DNA from: an uncultured Gammaproteobacteria bacterium
GTDB taxonomy: Bacteria; Patescibacteriota; Patescibacteriia; UBA1558; UBA10009
Assembly (NCBI GenBank): GCA_964588165.1
Contig: CAZPMS010000006.1
Span: forward strand, 3,425-67,424
DNA: 64,000 nucleotides
Direction: 5' to 3'
The position numbers and the translations under genes were made by a program. The notes under the pieces are model-generated. The model ran no database searches and was not told where the DNA came from. It worked only from the letters and a program-made list of their open reading frames with translations. Every line of letters starts with the position of its first letter. Position 1 is the first letter of the stretch. Below are positions 1,488 to 64,000 of the stretch, in pieces.

Positions 1488-1610
1488 GTTTTTATACCGT
1501 CTCTATTAATCATACTTATTATGGTCATGCTATGACTTTAGCTTTCACCTAACCAAACCCAAAGCCAATAAAAATCAACTAGTGGAATTAAAAAAAGCTT
1601 TTCCTCAATT

Positions 1611-1693
1611 GTCATTTCGAGCTCCGTCGAGAAATCCCGTTATAAACAGTACGTTTTAATAACACGGGATCCCTCCGCTCCGGTCGGGATGAT
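1611..1693. mobile_element. 83-bp MITE, GTCAT-TIR family, copy 1
   Basis: Left arm GTCATTTCGAGCTCCGTCGAGAAATCCCGTTA. Right arm reverse-complements to ATCATCCCGACCGGAGCGGAGGGATCCCGTGTTA. Centre contains AGTACGT. Same length and layout as 57437-57519. Confidence 0.75.
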
Positions 1694-1705
1694 AAAAATC
1701 AAATC

Positions 1706-6756: not shown

Positions 6757-7173
6757 CTACTCACTAAATACAACTATCTCCTCATTAGTTTCTTCCAACA
6801 TATACCTTAAAGTATATACTTGGCCGTCGGACCAATAATAATAAGAAATATTTTCTGAAGCTGATGGATCTTGAGGAACTTCACCTAAAGCATTAACTAA
6901 AGCTTCATAACCATTGCTGGCTTCATCATTTTGGAAAGGAAAATTGTTATTTTGGCTATTATACTCTGTTAACTTGTTTTGAACAGCTTGAATATCTTCT
7001 TTTCTCTTAATATCTCTTTGTTTTACCAATTCTTTTTCATGATCTATGCCAGCCATAACTCCAGTACTAACCAAACCGATAATAGCTAAAGCTAACGGAA
7101 TAACTAAGATAACAGCACCTTTTTTATCTCGCCATGAGTAAATTTGAGAAGCGGATTTATTAGTTAAATTCAT
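6757..7173 (-). CDS. hypothetical membrane-anchored protein, pilin/pseudopilin-like C-terminal region
   Basis: 138 aa with an N-terminal hydrophobic helix. The RDIKRKEDIQAVQNKLTEYNSQNNNFP stretch resembles type IV pilin-like globular-domain openings. No G/FTLIE cleavage motif. Confidence 0.4.
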   Translation of the reverse strand: MNLTNKSASQIYSWRDKKGAVILVIPLALAIIGLVSTGVMAGIDHEKELVKQRDIKRKEDIQAVQNKLTEYNSQNNNFPFQNDEASNGYEALVNALGEVPQDPSASENISYYYWSDGQVYTLRYMLEETNEEIVVFSE

Positions 7174-7396: not shown

Positions 7397-8260
7397 ATGA
7401 GAAGAAGGTGGATAAAAATTGACGGTACTGATACCGTTATCCGCGGTAAAACGGTAACTTTGAATTTAGAGTTACCGAGTGAATTCCAAAACGTTCACAG
7501 TCGTGATTTGGTGATAAACTGTGATGAAGGAAATGTACTGATTTGTGAAAGGGATGGTATTCACATCGCACCGACCATTGAAGTTTTTCCTGATACTCCT
7601 GATGTTCTTACTTTGGAAGTTAAGGGTAAGCTCATTCATCAACCAACAACAAGGACTGATTCTGCAAAGGAAACCGGCAGAGGAGATCCTTACAAAGTTG
7701 GCGAGCCACAGGTGGAACCGATTTTCGCCGATCCTGATCCGGAAGCTGAAGAAGAAGCAGAACTGGAACAGATTGGTGAAAGAATTACTATCACCCAAGA
7801 AATGCCGGTATACGAAACCACTGAAATCCATCACTTTGAGGCTGAAGAAAATTATTCTGCACGCTTTACTTTCAGGGTGATTGATTCTCGGCCGCTGATC
7901 AAACGTAACGAACTCACTGAGCTTCGGTTTGAGCTACCTGATGGTTTCGGCAAAATCAATGAACATCATCTACCAAAGATTTTGGGAAAGGGCGCCTACG
8001 TTACCGAGTGGCAACAGATAGGCCAAGCCTTAACTGTTTCGGTGAAGACCAAAAAGTCTTCACCCGAGGAAATTACTCTGCGGGTTCGCGGCATGTGTGA
8101 AGGCGAACATACTGAGGAATTCTTCAAAATTGATGTAGAGCCGGAAACTGAAAAGGTTAAGAGAAAAACTCTTATAGCCTTGGCAATACTTCTGCTGATA
8201 GCTGCCAGCTTTGTTTCGGGCATATACATTTCTACTCTTTTCCCTCTGTTATTTCAGTAG
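7397..8260 (+). CDS. hypothetical tail-anchored protein with two beta-rich repeats and an acidic linker (GC-rich islet ORF 2)
   Basis: 287 aa. Internal repeat (..LTLEVKGK.. / ..ITLRVRGM..), DPDPEAEEEAELEQ linker and a single C-terminal TM helix. High G+C. SD GAGAGG. Confidence 0.6.
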   Translation: MRRRWIKIDGTDTVIRGKTVTLNLELPSEFQNVHSRDLVINCDEGNVLICERDGIHIAPTIEVFPDTPDVLTLEVKGKLIHQPTTRTDSAKETGRGDPYKVGEPQVEPIFADPDPEAEEEAELEQIGERITITQEMPVYETTEIHHFEAEENYSARFTFRVIDSRPLIKRNELTELRFELPDGFGKINEHHLPKILGKGAYVTEWQQIGQALTVSVKTKKSSPEEITLRVRGMCEGEHTEEFFKIDVEPETEKVKRKTLIALAILLLIAASFVSGIYISTLFPLLFQ

Positions 8261-14306: not shown

Positions 14307-14762
14307 ATGGACCAGCATGTATTTACTTTGAAAGGACGCTTCTGGTGCCTTGGAGGCCTTAGCGTTCATAGGGCTTTATTAAGGCCAGCTGACTACCTGC
14401 AAGATCCTAGGCCGACTCTGGGCGAAATGACCAAGGCATTCTTTAACCTGATGCATCTGAAACTTGGCAGGCTCGAACTTCCTATCCAAAAGGGTGGCCA
14501 TGGAGAAATCTGGATTTTTTATCCTAATGGATCTGGATTTAAAATTGAATTCAGGGAAGGGAAATTATGCCTCATCCGTTTTGGCAAATTCAGTGATGAT
14601 AGTCTGGATGTAAAATATCATGAAAATATTCTCGCCAAAATACCAATAGGCTCCCTGCCTCCAGAAGCAATAAAACAAGATTTTGTGCTTGACAATGGAA
14701 TGATACTGAATCACGATTCAATATCTCAACTAGGAACTGTCTTTACTGGCCTAGCCGCCTAA
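14307..14762 (+). CDS. hypothetical protein (GC-rich islet ORF 4)
   Basis: 151 aa. Higher G+C than the flanks, with SD AAGGAG 7 nt upstream. No family recognised. Confidence 0.55.
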   Translation: MDQHVFTLKGRFWCLGGLSVHRALLRPADYLQDPRPTLGEMTKAFFNLMHLKLGRLELPIQKGGHGEIWIFYPNGSGFKIEFREGKLCLIRFGKFSDDSLDVKYHENILAKIPIGSLPPEAIKQDFVLDNGMILNHDSISQLGTVFTGLAA

Positions 14763-32034: not shown

Positions 32035-32132
32035 TGGCAGGGATTTGCCCCGCTTTTCGTGAAAGGCGGGATAAAAACCCAGACCAACGGTTTTGGACCC
32101 AGCCCTTCGCGAAGGGCTGGGTGGAGACCCTC
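32035..32132 (-). pseudogene. ghost of tRNA-Trp 3' half carrying two GC hairpin insertions
   Basis: Minus strand GAGGGTCTCCA[CCCAGCCCTTCGCGAAGGGCTGGG]TCCAAAACCGTTGGTCTGGGTT[..CCCGCCTTTCACGAAAAGCGGGG]CAAATCCCTGCCA aligns to the tRNA-Trp anticodon stem through CCA. The 3' acceptor strand is mostly deleted. Confidence 0.75.
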
Positions 32133-32148
32133 AAAAATCATATTATTT

Positions 32149-32223
32149 TGGCAGGAGCGCTAGGATTTGAACCCAGACCAACGGTTTTGGAGACCGTCAT
32201 GCTACCATTGACACCACGCTCCC
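32149..32223 (-). tRNA. tRNA-Trp (anticodon CCA)
   Basis: 75 nt cloverleaf GGGAGCG..ACGGT-CTCCAAA-ACCGT..CTGGG-TTCAAAT-CCTAG-CGCTCCT-G-CCA. CCA is encoded. Confidence 0.9.
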
Positions 32224-32258
32224 ATCAAAAAAATATGATTATCTTAAATTTAATCTCT

Positions 32259-32483
32259 TTAAAAGACCATGATAAGCGATCCATATTGTTTTAGTTTTCT
32301 TTCCCTCACTTTGGCATCTATTTCTTTCTGATACGCTTCATAATAAAACAATTTGGGATTTTTCATCCGTTTAGTAGTATACACTTTTCCACTTTTATGT
32401 TCAGACAATCGTCTATTTAGGTTATTAGTATACCCTATGTATATTTTCCCATGATCATCAAGTTGTAAATAAACATAATACAT
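32259..32483 (-). CDS. small GIY-YIG nuclease-family protein (COG2827-like)
   Basis: 74 aa. YVYLQ..GKIYIGYTNNLNRRLSEH..YYE. Ends 36 nt upstream of tRNA-Trp on the same strand. Confidence 0.8.
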   Translation of the reverse strand: MYYVYLQLDDHGKIYIGYTNNLNRRLSEHKSGKVYTTKRMKNPKLFYYEAYQKEIDAKVRERKLKQYGSLIMVF

Positions 32484-43519: not shown

Positions 43520-43600
43520 GTCATTCCGAGCGAGGCTAAACCCTCGCCTTAACGTTTAAATTATTAAAAAATTGTTTAACGAAGAATTCAGCTTATCATT
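43520..43600. mobile_element. degenerate GTCAT-TIR MITE (copy 3)
   Basis: The left arm GTCATTCCGAGCGAGGCTAAACCCTCGCCTTAACG is clear. The right arm TAACGAAGAATTCAGCTTATCATT is only weakly related. Total length is ~81 bp, like the 83-bp copies. Confidence 0.4.
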
Positions 43601-43632: not shown

Positions 43633-43875
43633 TTACTCAACTGATTGACGTTCAATATCTTCCTCATGACTGGTAACAGTATCGCCCCAATCTCCATCTG
43701 TTTGATCAAGAGTTGGCTTGGTTCCGGTAGCCCTGTCTTTTTTAGGGGGTTGTTGAGTATCTTCCAAAAAAGCAGCGGCAACCTCCGGATCATTTGGTAC
43801 ACCAGATTGATCTAATAAATCTTTAGCCTCTGGTGGTATCTCCCCTCCGTTTTCAAATGATTTTCCGTCAAACAT
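43633..43875 (-). CDS. hypothetical acidic Pro/Asp/Glu-rich protein
   Basis: 80 aa. Intermediate G+C and no SD. Bracketed by GTCAT-type arms at 43520 and 43924 in the same orientation. Confidence 0.4.
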   Translation of the reverse strand: MFDGKSFENGGEIPPEAKDLLDQSGVPNDPEVAAAFLEDTQQPPKKDRATGTKPTLDQTDGDWGDTVTSHEEDIERQSVE

Positions 43876-43923
43876 ATTTTTATTGGTTAATTAATTATTA
43901 TTTTTTTTGTATTCTACTACTAC

Positions 43924-44299
43924 GCCATTCCGAGCTTGTCGAGGAATCCCGTTATTCCGGAAAGACGATTTTTAAATTCTTATTAACTCGCTTTATTAAA
44001 TCCAATTTTTTAAAACGACTCCATTTTTTTAACTGTTTTTCTCTATCAATCGCTTCAATAATACTTTCATAACTTTCAAAATAAACTAATTCATCAACAT
44101 TATATTTTTTAGTAAATCCTTTTAATTTTAATTGATGTTCATCTAATCTTCTAGCTAAATCATTGGTAACTCCTATATAAATCACTGTTCTCCTATGATT
44201 CATTAAAAAATAGACGTAAAATTCTTTTTGTAACACATTTTAAACTTTCCTACCCTGATACATTTATTAACGGGATCTCTCCACCTTGGTCGAGATGAC
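43924..44299 (-). mobile_element. GTCAT-TIR element carrying a GIY-YIG gene (putative autonomous partner of the 83-bp MITEs)
   Basis: Plus-strand left arm GCCATTCCGAGCTTGTCGAGGAATCCCGTTA (43924-43954). The right arm 44268-44299 reverse-complements to GTCATCTCGACCAAGGTGGAGAGATCCCGTTA. The ORF stop TAA lies inside the left arm. Confidence 0.7.
43952..44236 (-). CDS. small GIY-YIG nuclease-family protein (COG2827-like)
   Basis: 94 aa. FYVYFLMN..VIYIGVTNDLARRLDEH..FTKKYNV..LVYFE. Confidence 0.85.
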   Translation of the reverse strand: MLQKEFYVYFLMNHRRTVIYIGVTNDLARRLDEHQLKLKGFTKKYNVDELVYFESYESIIEAIDREKQLKKWSRFKKLDLIKRVNKNLKIVFPE

Positions 44300-52381: not shown

Positions 52382-52557
52382 CGAGGATAAATTCCTCGCC
52401 TGCGGAATATTATATTTATTAGCGAGGCTAAACCCTCGCCTGAACGATCTACTATCCCCAAAGTTGAGCAGAGGGTTTAGCCTCTGCATAAAATCCGTAG
52501 ACTATAAATGTAATAAATTACTTAACAAAATACCGTAACAGAGGAATTTATCCTCTG
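52382..52557. repeat. four-hairpin composite repeat filling the purD-purN spacer
   Basis: H1 CGAGGATAAATTCCTCG (52382), H2 GCGAGGCTAAACCCTCGC (52422), H3 GCAGAGGGTTTAGCCTCTGC (52468), H4 CAGAGGAATTTATCCTCTG (52539). H3 resembles rc(H2) and H4 resembles rc(H1). H2 plus its flank equals the arm at 43527-43554. Confidence 0.65.
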
Positions 52558-52562
52558 CAAAT

Positions 52563-53933
52563 TTAAGACTTTAATTCTTCCATCATCTTAATTCTTTTTT
52601 CTATCAATTCCTTAGTTCCAATATCCGGCCTATAGAAAACCGGACCGGTTATCTTTTTTATTTCTGCTTCTACCATTTTTTCTGCTTCATATAAATCTTC
52701 ATGAATACCCACTAATGCCACGGCCCTGGAACCGGCTAGATACAGGCCGTCTTCTCTTTGATCGACTGAGGCATAAAAAACTTTAACTTTAGACTGGTCT
52801 ACTTTAGAAACATCAATCTTTTTATCTTTGGTAGGATTTTCCGGATAACCTTCTGGCACTACATATTTACAGACTGTAGATTTTTTTTGAAGCTCTGGCT
52901 TTAATTGATCTAAATTACCGTTAATAATGGCTGAACATATTTCTAAAAAATCTGCTGATTTGTTGGCGGGAAAAGTTTTAGGCGGGAAAAGTGGCAACAC
53001 ATTCATGGCCTCTGGATCGCCTAACCTGGCATTATACTCAATCAGTTTGACTCCATTCTTAGTTAGCATAAAACCGCCATACAAAAATCCCTTATAGCTT
53101 TTACCAAACTTCTTTTTTAAAGCAACAGCCGTAGCTTCATTTACCCGACGGGCTTCTTTAATATCTTCTTCATCTAAAAATGGTAAAGAAAAATCTGCCA
53201 TAGAATAAGAACCCATGCCACCGGTATTAGGTCCTTTATCATCTACTAGAGCTCTTTTATTATCTTGAACCGCTGGCAGATGTAATAAATGTTCGCCATC
53301 ACAAAAACTCATCAAACTAAATTCCTGGCCAACCAATTTTTCTTCTATAACAACCTTATGACCTGATTCAAAATGTTTTTTTATAATCTCCAGGCCTTCG
53401 TTCATATTTTTAAAATGGTCGCCAGCCACAGTTACTCCTTTACCGCCAGCTAAACCGTCTTGTTTAATTACAAAATTTTCTTCCAAATGTTGAATCCAGT
53501 CTTCTACCCCTTCCATATCTTCACCCAGTCCTTCGCGAAGAGCTGGGTCAAAAACCATAAACTCGGGACTGCCATTTATTTTATAATCCTTAAATAATTC
53601 ACGAGTGAAGGCTTTACTGGTTTCTATCTGGGCTAAATCCTTGTCCGGGCCTACTGATGGAATGCCAACTTGGGATAAAACATCTACTACTCCTTGGCCT
53701 AAAGGAGCTTCTGGACCGATAAGGCAAAAATCAATAGATTTTTCGGTGGCATAACTAACTATAGAAGTATTATTTTTAAGCTCGCCAACTTTATAATCAG
53801 TTGCCAGCTCTTTAGTGCCTGGATTTGTGGATGAGGCAAATACATAAAGCTCTATTTCTTCTTTAGAAGATTTTAAAACAGAAGCCATGGCATGCTCTCT
53901 GGCACCAGAGCCAACTAACAAAACTTTTTTCAT
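52563..53933 (-). CDS. purD: phosphoribosylamine--glycine ligase
   Basis: 456 aa, ATP-grasp. VLLVGSGAREHA, GLAGGKGV, NARLGDPE. Confidence 0.93.
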   Translation of the reverse strand: MKKVLLVGSGAREHAMASVLKSSKEEIELYVFASSTNPGTKELATDYKVGELKNNTSIVSYATEKSIDFCLIGPEAPLGQGVVDVLSQVGIPSVGPDKDLAQIETSKAFTRELFKDYKINGSPEFMVFDPALREGLGEDMEGVEDWIQHLEENFVIKQDGLAGGKGVTVAGDHFKNMNEGLEIIKKHFESGHKVVIEEKLVGQEFSLMSFCDGEHLLHLPAVQDNKRALVDDKGPNTGGMGSYSMADFSLPFLDEEDIKEARRVNEATAVALKKKFGKSYKGFLYGGFMLTKNGVKLIEYNARLGDPEAMNVLPLFPPKTFPANKSADFLEICSAIINGNLDQLKPELQKKSTVCKYVVPEGYPENPTKDKKIDVSKVDQSKVKVFYASVDQREDGLYLAGSRAVALVGIHEDLYEAEKMVEAEIKKITGPVFYRPDIGTKELIEKRIKMMEELKS

Positions 53934-57393: not shown

Positions 57394-57436
57394 AAATTTA
57401 TGAATAAAAAATGTTATGGAAAACTTTACTTCTATC

Positions 57437-57519
57437 TGTCATCCTGAGCTTGCCGAAGGATCCCGTTACTTTTAGTACGTGCTATATAATACGGGATTCC
57501 TCAATGTAACTCAGAATGA
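57437..57519. mobile_element. 83-bp MITE, GTCAT-TIR family, copy 2
   Basis: Left arm GTCATCCTGAGCTTGCCGAAGGATCCCGTTA. The right arm reverse-complements to GTCATTCTGAGTTACATTGAGGAATCCCGTA. Centre contains AGTACGT. The outer flanks AAACTTTACTT / AAGTAAAGTTT are also inverted. Confidence 0.8.
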
Positions 57520-57544
57520 CAAAAAGTAAAGTTTTACCTGATTA

Positions 57545-63400: not shown

Positions 63401-64000
63401 CTAATTATTCATTTTATCCCTTAAACCGTTCAACCATTTATCTGCCATTTCTTGAACTGATAAATTGATAATTTCTTGTACCGACGCAATGTCATCCTGA
63501 GCGGAGCCAAAGGATTGCGTCGCTACCTTTAGCGACTGACCACCAGTCTTACCTATTTCAATAGCTTCAATATTATATTTCTCACAAATCTTCTGTACCG
63601 ACGCAACATCCTTAGTTTCTAAAACAAAGCCGCCTGTTTCGGAAAATAATTTCCCTGACGGATAAATTCCGTCAGCTGCGGTTTGGGTGAATTCTATTTC
63701 GCAGCCAATTTTATTTTTCCCATTCCCGCCAAAACACATTTCAGCAAGAGCAACTGCCAATCCACCGTCTGATATATCATGGCAAGCCAACAGTAATTCA
63801 TTATCAATCATATCTGTTACTGCATATATTTGATTTTCTGCCTCTTTAAAATCAGGCTTTGGCACATTGGCACCTAACTCGTTATGGATTTGATAGTAGA
63901 CCGAACCGCCCAGTTCATCTTTACGTTGGCCAATTAATAAAATTGACGAACCGGTTTTTTTAAATTCCATAGTAATGGCCTTATTATAATCCTGAATTCT
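63401..64000 (-). CDS. purL: FGAM synthase II (PurL), C-terminal part; gene continues beyond window end
   Basis: ..LLACHDISDGGLAVALAEMCF.. is typical of the PurL C-terminal AIRS-C domain. The frame stays open to position 64000, and the track start at 63970 is only an internal Met. Confidence 0.88.
   Translation of the reverse strand, partial: RIQDYNKAITMEFKKTGSSILLIGQRKDELGGSVYYQIHNELGANVPKPDFKEAENQIYAVTDMIDNELLLACHDISDGGLAVALAEMCFGGNGKNKIGCEIEFTQTAADGIYPSGKLFSETGGFVLETKDVASVQKICEKYNIEAIEIGKTGGQSLKVATQSFGSAQDDIASVQEIINLSVQEMADKWLNGLRDKMNN
63482..63522 (-). repeat. GTCAT-type hairpin element inserted in frame within purL
   Basis: Plus strand CGACGCAAT-GTCATCCTGAGCGGAGCCAAAGG-ATTGCGTCG, translated as ..ATQSFGSAQDDIAS... 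The 12-mer GTACCGACGCAA is repeated at 63478 and 63595. Confidence 0.6.

Follow-up and report, generated by a model that had tools for sequence, protein, structure and literature searches.

A probable Ssn-type GIY-YIG nuclease gene with flanking and dispersed hairpin repeats in a Patescibacteria genome

Introduction

A 64,000-nt stretch of DNA from a Patescibacteria (Komeilibacteria-like) genome, called the window below, contains a gene for a 94-amino-acid (aa) GIY-YIG protein that sits between two inverted copies of a short hairpin repeat. Further copies of the repeat occur in the window as 83-bp pairs that carry no gene. Do protein and repeat belong together, and does the one move the other? 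We find that the physical link between Ssn-class GIY-YIG miniproteins and hairpin repeats is real and general among the homologues analysed here, and that the locus is very probably an Ssn/SRM system: a single-domain GIY-YIG nuclease of the Ssn family together with its cognate hairpins (Ssn-related motifs, SRMs).

The initial annotation of the window took the 83-bp pairs for miniature inverted-repeat transposable elements (MITEs), regarded the function of GIY-YIG miniproteins as unknown and held their link with such repeats to be undescribed. The last two statements have been overtaken by Chenal et al. (2025, Nat Commun 16:2388, PMC11893778), who defined the Ssn family (CDD cd10448, GIY-YIG_unchar_3), characterised four members as hairpin-specific endonucleases of single-stranded DNA (ssDNA) and reported the association of gene and hairpin. 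In that work, SsnA (NMV_0044 of N. meningitidis) is a 94-aa single-domain GIY-YIG protein, the Neisseria hairpin repeat NTS is CGTCATTCCCGCGMAVGCGGGAATCYRG, and the degenerate relative of NTS is the SRM. An SRM lies near 71% of homologues and on both sides of 42%. The four enzymes bind the hairpin in ssDNA alone, cut a few nt upstream of it and are inactive on double-stranded DNA (dsDNA), RNA and the reverse strand; SsnA fails to bind RNA. Binding depends most on the C after the palindrome and cutting on the three nt ahead of the palindrome, and each of the substitutions Y6A, Y17A and E64A abolishes cleavage. NTS-flanked DNA transforms less well in N. meningitidis. The repeat-gene-repeat architecture was likened to an insertion sequence (IS), to IS200/IS605 and to RAYT/REP/BIME, and domestication was suggested; mobilisation by Ssn is a hypothesis in PMC11893778, where mobility was not demonstrated. 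Its text mentions no doublets, REPINs or MITEs. We found no follow-up paper in the literature, and searches for GIY-YIG with MITE, for COG2827 and for the string GTCATTGCGAG returned nothing relevant.

New here are the lineage, a divergent hairpin subclass and comparative evidence of gain and loss. The window provides a compact Ssn/SRM example in Patescibacteria, which are absent from the text of PMC11893778. Empty and occupied orthologous sites, two hairpin classes in one spacer and an arm inserted in frame in purL are comparative evidence that PMC11893778 lacks and of the kind for which its discussion calls.

Results

Arms of one design flank the gene and form the doublets

Six full copies of one arm of about 33 nt are present in the window as three inverted pairs (1611-1693; 57438-57520; and 43924-43955 on the plus strand with 44267-44299 on the minus strand). 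The arms used to train a covariance model, R1, were all gene-less: four lie in the window and two in a relative (L007, described below). The features concerned, with their R1 scores, are these.

43952-44236, minus strand: ssn gene, for a predicted 94-aa single-domain GIY-YIG nuclease; GTG start; Pfam PF01541
44267-44302, minus strand: upstream arm (SRM); 31 bits, E 1.9e-5, from a model built without this arm
43921-43955, plus strand: downstream arm (SRM), inverted relative to the upstream arm; 37.9 bits, E 3.6e-7
1611-1693, no strand: SRM doublet A, 83 bp; hits at 1608-1643 (plus) and 1661-1696 (minus)
57438-57520, no strand: SRM doublet B, 83 bp, in the purC-purE spacer; hits at 57435-57469 (plus) and 57488-57523 (minus)
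63488-63523, plus strand: single SRM arm inside purL (open reading frame (ORF) 63401-63970, minus strand); 22.5 bits, E 0.0026

The model thus recognised both gene-flanking arms, and its next match in the window outside the family had an E value of 0.36. One arm model finds doublets and gene cassette alike, so that terminal inverted repeats are common to both, as a strict definition of MITEs demands. The initial annotation had proposed matching arms around the 94-aa GIY-YIG gene at 43924-44299, and had staked its case on their alignment with the gene-less arms under a formal model; both expectations are borne out, since an inverted pair encloses a PF01541 gene (E 4.8e-17) and R1 finds its two arms.

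Each arm follows the layout GTC-[ATYYC]-GA-loop-GA-[GRRAT]-CCCGT(TA), with a loop of 7-9 variable nt (19 in one arm of L007). Among eight arms there are six different stems, e.g. ATTTC/GAAAT, ATTCC/GGAAT, ATCCC/GGGAT, ATCCT/AGGAT, ATCTC/GAGAT and GTCTC/GAGAC. All 40 cells of the 5-bp intra-arm stem are paired, with two-sided, compensatory changes at four of the five pairs; shifting the partner by 1-3 columns lowers pairing to 7-65%. Three positions never vary among the eight arms, namely the C of GTC, the T at the beginning of the stem and the C following the stem; the G and T of GTC each vary in single arms. The string GTCATYYYGAGC matched the window seven times at up to one mismatch, against 1.0 expected, and none of 100 shuffles reached seven.

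The upstream arm of the cassette reads GTC-ATCTC-GA-CCAAGGTG-GA-GAGAT-CCCGTTAA, with GTCAT on the sense strand of the gene. It begins 10 nt past the stop codon of the asparaginyl-tRNA synthetase (AsnRS) gene and ends 30 nt ahead of the GTG start of ssn. The downstream arm reads GCC-ATTCC-GA-GCTTGTC-GA-GGAAT-CCCGTTAT, and its CCCGTTA tail contains the TAA stop codon of ssn (43952-43954), a placement that had been noticed from the outset.

The gene-less units were likewise described correctly as two 83-bp copies, free of ORFs and with an AGTACGT centre, except that the second lies at 57438-57520, one position beyond the 57437-57519 first given. Doublet A consists of two inverted arms with their tails facing across a 24-nt AT-rich spacer; its arms score 49 and 43.8 bits under R1, as training members of the model. 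The 83-bp units are double hairpins built like REPINs, two SRMs with tails facing. As ssDNA, doublet A folds at -12.8 kcal/mol and doublet B with a z-score of -3.8. An additional outer inverted repeat, GGAAAACTTTACTT / AAGTAAAGTTTTACC, brackets doublet B at about 57418-57437 and 57521-57540 and has no counterpart in the empty spacers of two relatives, L173 and L174. The unit inserted here either measures about 120 bp or entered a palindrome that was already there. We considered the doublets as internal-deletion derivatives of the cassette and rejected this, the spacer being only weakly like the 5' leader (about 12 of 16 positions, AT-rich, by eye).

A gathering-score scan of the whole window with Rfam found tRNAs and no family for the arms, and E-value scans of the cassette and doublet B gave generic long-hairpin matches below threshold. 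A role of the arms as promoter or terminator was also rejected: they have no terminator-like sites and no T-tract, and promoter-like sites are fewer than in shuffles. Doublet B (57420-57535) has a sub-threshold Rfam match to the Wolbachia small RNA WsnRNA46 (19.5 bits, gathering score 65). WsnRNA46 may itself derive from an SRM-type repeat, because Wolbachia is an SRM-rich genus in PMC11893778.

The protein probably belongs with the Ssn family

Against Pfam, the window protein has one significant match, to PF01541 (GIY-YIG) over residues 6-77; two further Pfam matches fall below their curated cut-offs, and the protein has no DNA-binding domain. With 94 aa it also stays below the 150 aa that bound this single-domain family. 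NCBIfam and PADLOC gave nothing above cut-off, with weak generic GIY-YIG matches. The public annotation carries an 83-aa form (P0001) that starts at an alternative ATG at 44203. We prefer the GTG start and 94 aa, because the shorter form would lose the first beta-strand with the conserved Y9.

Thousands of homologues exist for the protein. It is 48.1% identical to the SsnA orthologue of N. gonorrhoeae over residues 8-85 (about 79 aa, 83% of the query), with a tblastn E value of 1e-14 in a 7.3-Gb database (NZ_CP119140.1 in PLSDB) and a pairwise blastp E value of 1e-23. PMC11893778 assigns to the family those proteins that BLAST aligns with Neisseria SsnA at E < 1e-10 and a coverage of 75% or more; the window protein lies within these limits in the present comparison, which used the gonococcal orthologue, not the meningococcal CAX49033.1. 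The gonococcal ORF has 94 aa, begins MQPAVYILASQRNGTLYIGVTSDL, carries Y6, Y17 and E64 as in PMC11893778, and has seven canonical NTS copies within 1.4 kb. The aligned counterparts of Y6, Y17 and E64 in the window protein are Y9, Y20 and E66, respectively, which are invariant in an alignment of 34 homologues, as are R30, H34 and N85.

The AlphaFold2 model (predicted local distance difference test score 89.8) is a compact, minimal GIY-YIG fold of three strands and three helices. Its best solved counterparts are UPF0213 BH0048 (PDB 1ZG2, E 2e-4), Slx1 (E 0.009-0.07) and the N-terminal domain of UvrC. A PDB sequence search with the window protein gave no match at E < 0.01, and no solved Ssn structure was recognisable. 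By analogy with the four characterised homologues, the window protein would bind and cut its hairpins.

Several points weigh against this assignment. The C-terminal tail of the protein, NKNLKIVFPE, deviates from the family consensus NPxWxDL. Single window arms have little folding stability as DNA (-0.1 to -5.7 kcal/mol) and do not surpass shuffles in this; the case for the arm hairpin rests on covariation and not on energy. Whole doublets form long hairpins as ssDNA at about -13 kcal/mol. Finally, none of the window arms matches the published SRM string HGTCWYN(0-2)YYVSBRHN(0-5)WNVSBRGN(0-2)RNCYNB in its regular-expression version. The same expression matches canonical NTS test sequences, but only 15 of the 388 hairpins that we found around 80 homologues (see below). 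The string is a search tool derived from 29 genomes, not a definition of the family, and we read the mismatch as the mark of a divergent hairpin subclass (short stem, GA/GA internal loop, CCCGT tail) and not as exclusion. Since this subclass escapes the printed string, the published flanking figures of 71% and 42% may be underestimates.

Two other small ORFs deserve mention here. An acidic 80-aa ORF (43633-43875, minus strand) lies between the ssn cassette and the aspartyl-tRNA synthetase (AspRS) gene and is annotated as a gene in the public contig. Pfam and PADLOC searches with it matched nothing, 80 AsnRS loci contain no homologue, and it may not be a real gene. A second GIY-YIG mini-ORF (32259-32483, minus strand) encodes 74 aa (Pfam E 7.8e-13) that are 42% identical to the Ssn protein; it has no arms nearby and lacks the C-terminal W.R..K..LI..N segment. 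By motif reading it looks closer to the UPF0213/YhbQ type.

Hairpins accompany the gene across phyla

We surveyed the 80 nearest genomic homologues of the window protein (loci L008-L087) with 665 kb of surrounding DNA. These loci come from Cyanobacteria, Alpha-, Beta-, Gamma- and Deltaproteobacteria, Bacteroidota, Clostridia, Planctomycetota, Omnitrophota, several groups of the candidate phyla radiation (CPR) and others. The proteins are 48-63% identical to that of the window, and gene neighbourhoods differ at all 80 loci.

A strict pattern (GTC, then a fully paired 5-bp stem that begins with AT and encloses 4-45 nt of loop, then C) found 388 hairpins, against 10 in reversed-sequence controls. 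At 72 of the 80 loci such a hairpin lies within 150 bp of the gene. GIY-YIG genes elsewhere in the genome without arms, which the initial annotation had named as evidence against its proposal, are formally represented by the arm-less ORF at 32259-32483; as an apparently different, truncated GIY-YIG type, this ORF has no bearing on the Ssn link. The association is oriented. A plus-strand hairpin stands upstream at 53 loci, at a median of 29 nt from the start codon, and a minus-strand hairpin downstream at 56, at a median of 21 nt from the stop codon; 43 loci have both. Hairpin density is about 5 per kb beside the gene and 0.1 per kb beyond 1 kb.

Stems vary by locus, ATTGC being commonest, followed by ATTCC, ATCCT, ATTTC and ATCTC. 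GA follows the stem directly in 303 of the 388 hairpins, and 77 contain GCGNAGC, which we take to be the classic extra-stable DNA mini-hairpin. At four loci (L046, L049, L076 and L084) the flanking hairpins, at 26-53 bp, have a 24-nt core identical to the Neisseria NTS. Stems are the same on both sides of the gene at 31 of 43 loci, and protein identity is 62.8% within a stem class and 56.6% between classes, a difference reached in none of 2000 permutations but confounded with taxonomy. Of the 34 adjacent hairpin pairs at distances above 1 kb from the gene, 19 are plus/minus, with a median gap of 15 nt, and such a doublet is the commonest dispersed form of the hairpin.

Tandem arrays of alternating hairpins stand beside the gene at many loci, e.g. 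L014, L018, L048, L061, L068 and L070. In several annotated homologues the reading frame runs on into hairpins and so acquires tails such as GFPLSRE, DAESSSA and IPNQVGNDEG.

Doublets are gained and lost between related genomes

We compared the purC-purE spacer with that of three relatives, L171, L173 and L174, whose PurC is about 77% identical to that of the window and one of which is named Candidatus Komeilibacteria. The spacer measures 151 bp in the window, where it holds doublet B, but 25 bp in L174 and 41 bp in L173, both of them empty. In L171 it measures 166 bp and contains a doublet of another stem class (ATTCTGG...); two stem classes have occupied the same spacer independently. Over 21 kb, L171 carries four strict doublets and a fifth, degenerate one (7542-7638), located 5-27 nt past stop codons; the window is empty at the corresponding sites, and L173 has no hairpins in 21 kb. 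Insertion polymorphism between genomes, another strict mark of MITEs, is thus present at the purC-purE spacer and for the four L171 doublets. The polymorphism that the initial annotation had proposed to look for between strains is seen between these related genomes and not within the strain: contigs of the same strain with identical PurE have the same spacer. We detected no direct repeats of the target-site-duplication type at doublets A and B or at the L171 doublets by comparison with empty sites, a comparison between relatives of about 77% protein identity in which the boundaries cannot be fixed.

The ssn gene itself lies between AsnRS and AspRS, and none of 80 metagenomic relatives with AsnRS 60-85% identical has a GIY-YIG gene at this site, where the two synthetase genes are in many relatives 11-100 bp apart. 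Besides the window, L007 alone carries ssn there (Ssn 71% identical, AsnRS 84%). Its gene begins 0 nt after the AsnRS stop codon (10 nt in the window) and is followed by a complete doublet instead of being enclosed by arms. Relative to the empty site of L088, L007 has a 466-bp insertion made up of the gene, the doublet and a fresh 27-nt AsnRS 3' end. The native AsnRS 3' end and terminator of L088 recur in L007, 96% identical, 466 bp downstream of the second, functional AsnRS end, and the second copy of the last 27 nt of AsnRS has three synonymous differences (L007 2956-2983 and 3422-3449; L088 4264-4318; gene as a whole 87% identical). From this duplication of the AsnRS 3' end around the insertion it follows that gene and doublet came in together as a single block. 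In its pattern, the event resembles homology-facilitated recombination with a donor fragment that included part of AsnRS more closely than cut-and-paste transposition.

Doublets, and the unit of gene plus doublet, are therefore gained or lost as discrete units between relatives. This is consistent with mobilisation but does not thereby demonstrate that Ssn is the mover.

A single arm is translated within purL

The arm in purL is translated in frame, as TQSFGSAQDDI. It constitutes a 33-nt (11-aa) insertion that is absent from the PurL orthologues of L171, L173 and L174. Elsewhere in purL, L173 carries an identical 17-mer, GCAATGTCATCCTGAGC (about 7085-7110), located in a variable loop and read as SFGAAQDDIA, which suggests repeated or ancient in-frame insertions of arms. 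A 13-nt direct repeat, TGTACCGACGCAA, is found in the window purL at 63477 and 63594.

The initial annotation had listed degenerate or half copies at three places. That in purL is confirmed; R1 does not find those at 43520-43600 and 52422-52445 (E > 10). The first of these two is retained as follows.

43520-43600, no strand: possible decayed doublet, membership uncertain, between the 80-aa ORF and AspRS

An exact GTCATTCCGAGC stands at its start, but another hairpin, GCGAGGCTAAACCCTCGC, takes the place of the 3' stem half; the site may be a decayed arm. A different 23-nt hairpin, GCGAGGCTAAACCCTCGCC, is shared by 43520-43600 and 52422-52445, and at 52424 it stands without GTCAT. A separate small hairpin family, GC(G/A)AGGCTAAACCCTC(G/T)GC, has three copies (43527-43549, 52422-52447 and 52478-52497), and these are what the initial annotation had counted as degenerate arms.

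Discussion

Relation to known systems

The closest relative of the locus is the Ssn/NTS-SRM system itself, with which it shares a 94-aa single-domain GIY-YIG protein (48% identity, Y/Y/E aligned), stems preceded by GTC and followed by C, a gene with hairpins at either side, dispersed copies and occurrence across phyla. It differs in its 5-bp stem followed by a GA...GA internal loop, variable tip and conserved CCCGTTA tail, in arms that miss the SRM string, in dispersed copies that are regular two-arm doublets, in its CPR host and in low copy number.

REPINs (inverted REP pairs, described in Pseudomonas) and the REP-associated tyrosine transposases (RAYT) resemble it (Bertels & Rainey 2011, PMC3116915; Nunvar 2010; Ton-Hoang 2012): there, too, short hairpin repeats are scattered as inverted doublets, hairpins of this kind flank a gene present in one copy, hairpins are recognised in ssDNA, and enzyme and repeat have been seen as a domesticated or selfish pair. 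RAYT is, however, an HUH/Y1 transposase with a covalent intermediate that can rejoin DNA, whereas Ssn is hydrolytic with no known joining activity, and the two have no relationship of sequence or fold. IS200/IS605 'peel and paste' elements likewise have subterminal hairpins recognised on ssDNA, a small enzyme and a cut beside the hairpin rather than inside it. Their ends are not inverted, both cuts fall on the same strand and the enzyme is of the HUH class; here the ends are inverted and the cuttable strand differs by end. The GIY-YIG fold is shared with the UPF0213/COG2827 proteins (B. halodurans BH0048, E. coli YhbQ), which are not known to be associated with hairpin repeats, and with Slx1, which needs Slx4 and carries a RING domain.

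For the in-frame purL arm a parallel may exist in Rickettsia. Its palindromic elements, described by Ogata et al. in 2000, are reportedly palindromic repeats of about 100-150 bp in frame inside coding genes. Both are in-frame palindromic repeats, the purL insert being a single 33-nt arm, and we know of no demonstrated relation between those elements and SRMs. Rickettsia is listed among the SRM-rich genomes in PMC11893778.

How such units might spread

By analogy with the characterised enzymes, the following steps can be proposed. In the ssDNA state, the strand with GTCAT...ATC would fold into a small hairpin; a monomeric Ssn would bind the stem and the following C and, with Mg2+, hydrolyse the hairpin strand a few nt 5' of GTC. 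Double-stranded DNA, RNA and the complementary strand would be non-substrates. The cuttable strand would be the top one at one end and the bottom one at the other, and, since the arms are inverted, the cassette and each doublet would be cut immediately beyond their two ends, once per strand. More speculatively, nicks at the 5' boundaries followed by strand separation and fill-in could leave a full copy on each broken end, which would yield tandem arrays and doublets without strand-transfer chemistry.

We tentatively raise the possibility, which we consider unlikely at present, that Ssn genes with their flanking hairpins are autonomous mobile elements of a new mechanistic class, in which a hydrolytic GIY-YIG enzyme nicks the 5' boundaries, with SRM doublets and single arms as non-autonomous passengers. 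If this were true, such passengers could, in streamlined CPR genomes, colonise spacers a few nt after stop codons and settle in frame within essential genes such as purL. The gain and loss described above make mobilisation by Ssn a question that can be asked in strain-resolved metagenomes and with a trap assay. Each new pair of Ssn and hairpin is, moreover, a candidate reagent for sequence-specific cutting of ssDNA.

Alternative explanations

Several explanations compete over what the gene and its hairpins do. The first, a serious possibility that nevertheless falls short of an even chance, was put forward in the initial annotation and is also raised in the discussion of PMC11893778; it makes them a transposon pair: the arm-gene-arm cassette would be IS-like and nick the 5' boundary of each strand, the doublets would be MITEs moved in trans, and host repair or replication would do the joining and copying. 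The inverted hairpins at the ends of the cassette, with cuts predicted immediately beyond each end, suit this explanation, as do doublets present or absent at orthologous sites, different stem classes that entered one spacer independently, the 466-bp insertion of gene and doublet in L007 against the empty site in L088, and the single in-frame arm in purL. It is also consistent with neighbourhoods that differ at all 80 loci despite 48-63% protein identity across phyla, and with protein identity that tracks stem class (confounded with taxonomy) and equal stems on both sides at 31 of 43 loci. GIY-YIG enzymes, however, hydrolyse DNA with no covalent intermediate, and to our knowledge no strand-transfer step is known for them. 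No target-site duplication was found at any doublet, the sole flanking duplication (L007) looks like homology-facilitated recombination, and 64 kb hold one gene copy and three arm pairs. Transposition has not been observed experimentally in any Ssn system (PMC11893778).

A tenable but rather unlikely explanation is that the pair has been domesticated and serves the host. Ssn would then cut motif-bearing ssDNA during transformation, conjugation or replication, so as to restrict or channel it as proposed for Neisseria, and the hairpins, spread by ordinary recombination, would mark self loci or act as local regulators or terminators. The published transformation phenotype in N. meningitidis (PMC11893778) points this way; so do the position of doublets in compact operons, 5-56 nt past stop codons, from which a hairpin might influence transcripts or replication, and the retention of the gene at the AsnRS-AspRS site in two genomes whose Ssn has diverged to 71% identity. 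The distribution is patchy, however: relatives with AsnRS 80-85% identical lack the gene at the site that L007 (84%) has filled, and L173 does without hairpins in 21 kb. The in-frame insertion in purL is, furthermore, hard to see as serving the host.

It is very unlikely that ssn is a free-standing homing endonuclease gene aimed at the AsnRS 3' end, like those of the phage T4 Seg proteins, with the hairpins incidental. The gene does directly follow AsnRS in two genomes (10 nt and 0 nt past the stop codon), and the L007 insertion brings its own copy of the AsnRS 3' end. Yet the protein lacks a DNA-binding domain, its homologues occupy unrelated contexts at 80 loci, with hairpins, and the characterised Ssn members do not cut dsDNA (PMC11893778).

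The arms might work as RNA and be unrelated to the protein, as terminators, attenuators or a structured small RNA, but this is scarcely credible: covariation of the stem would fit RNA too, and the arms are located downstream of genes, but they belong to no Rfam family at gathering score (the generic long-hairpin matches are sub-threshold), lack a T-tract and terminator-like sites, occur in both orientations relative to transcription and are strongly associated, in a fixed orientation, with ssn across phyla; 77 of the 388 hairpins around the homologues carry the DNA mini-hairpin GCGNAGC, and SsnA does not bind RNA (PMC11893778).

Other repeats in the window

Two further groups of repeats were observed. 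The 3' half of a tRNA gene (32152-32223, minus strand) is partially duplicated at 32069-32097 (region 32040-32225). A perfect hairpin, ACCCAGCCCTTCGCGAAGGGCTGGGT, separates tRNA and duplicate and recurs at 53518-53561; together they look like the scar of an integration or another small repeat family. A four-copy repeat composed of two short GC-rich hairpins (CCAGCCAAAGGCTGG-TCCGCC...GGCGGA) is located at 14396, 25193, 34325 and 48913, and two of its copies adjoin tRNA genes.

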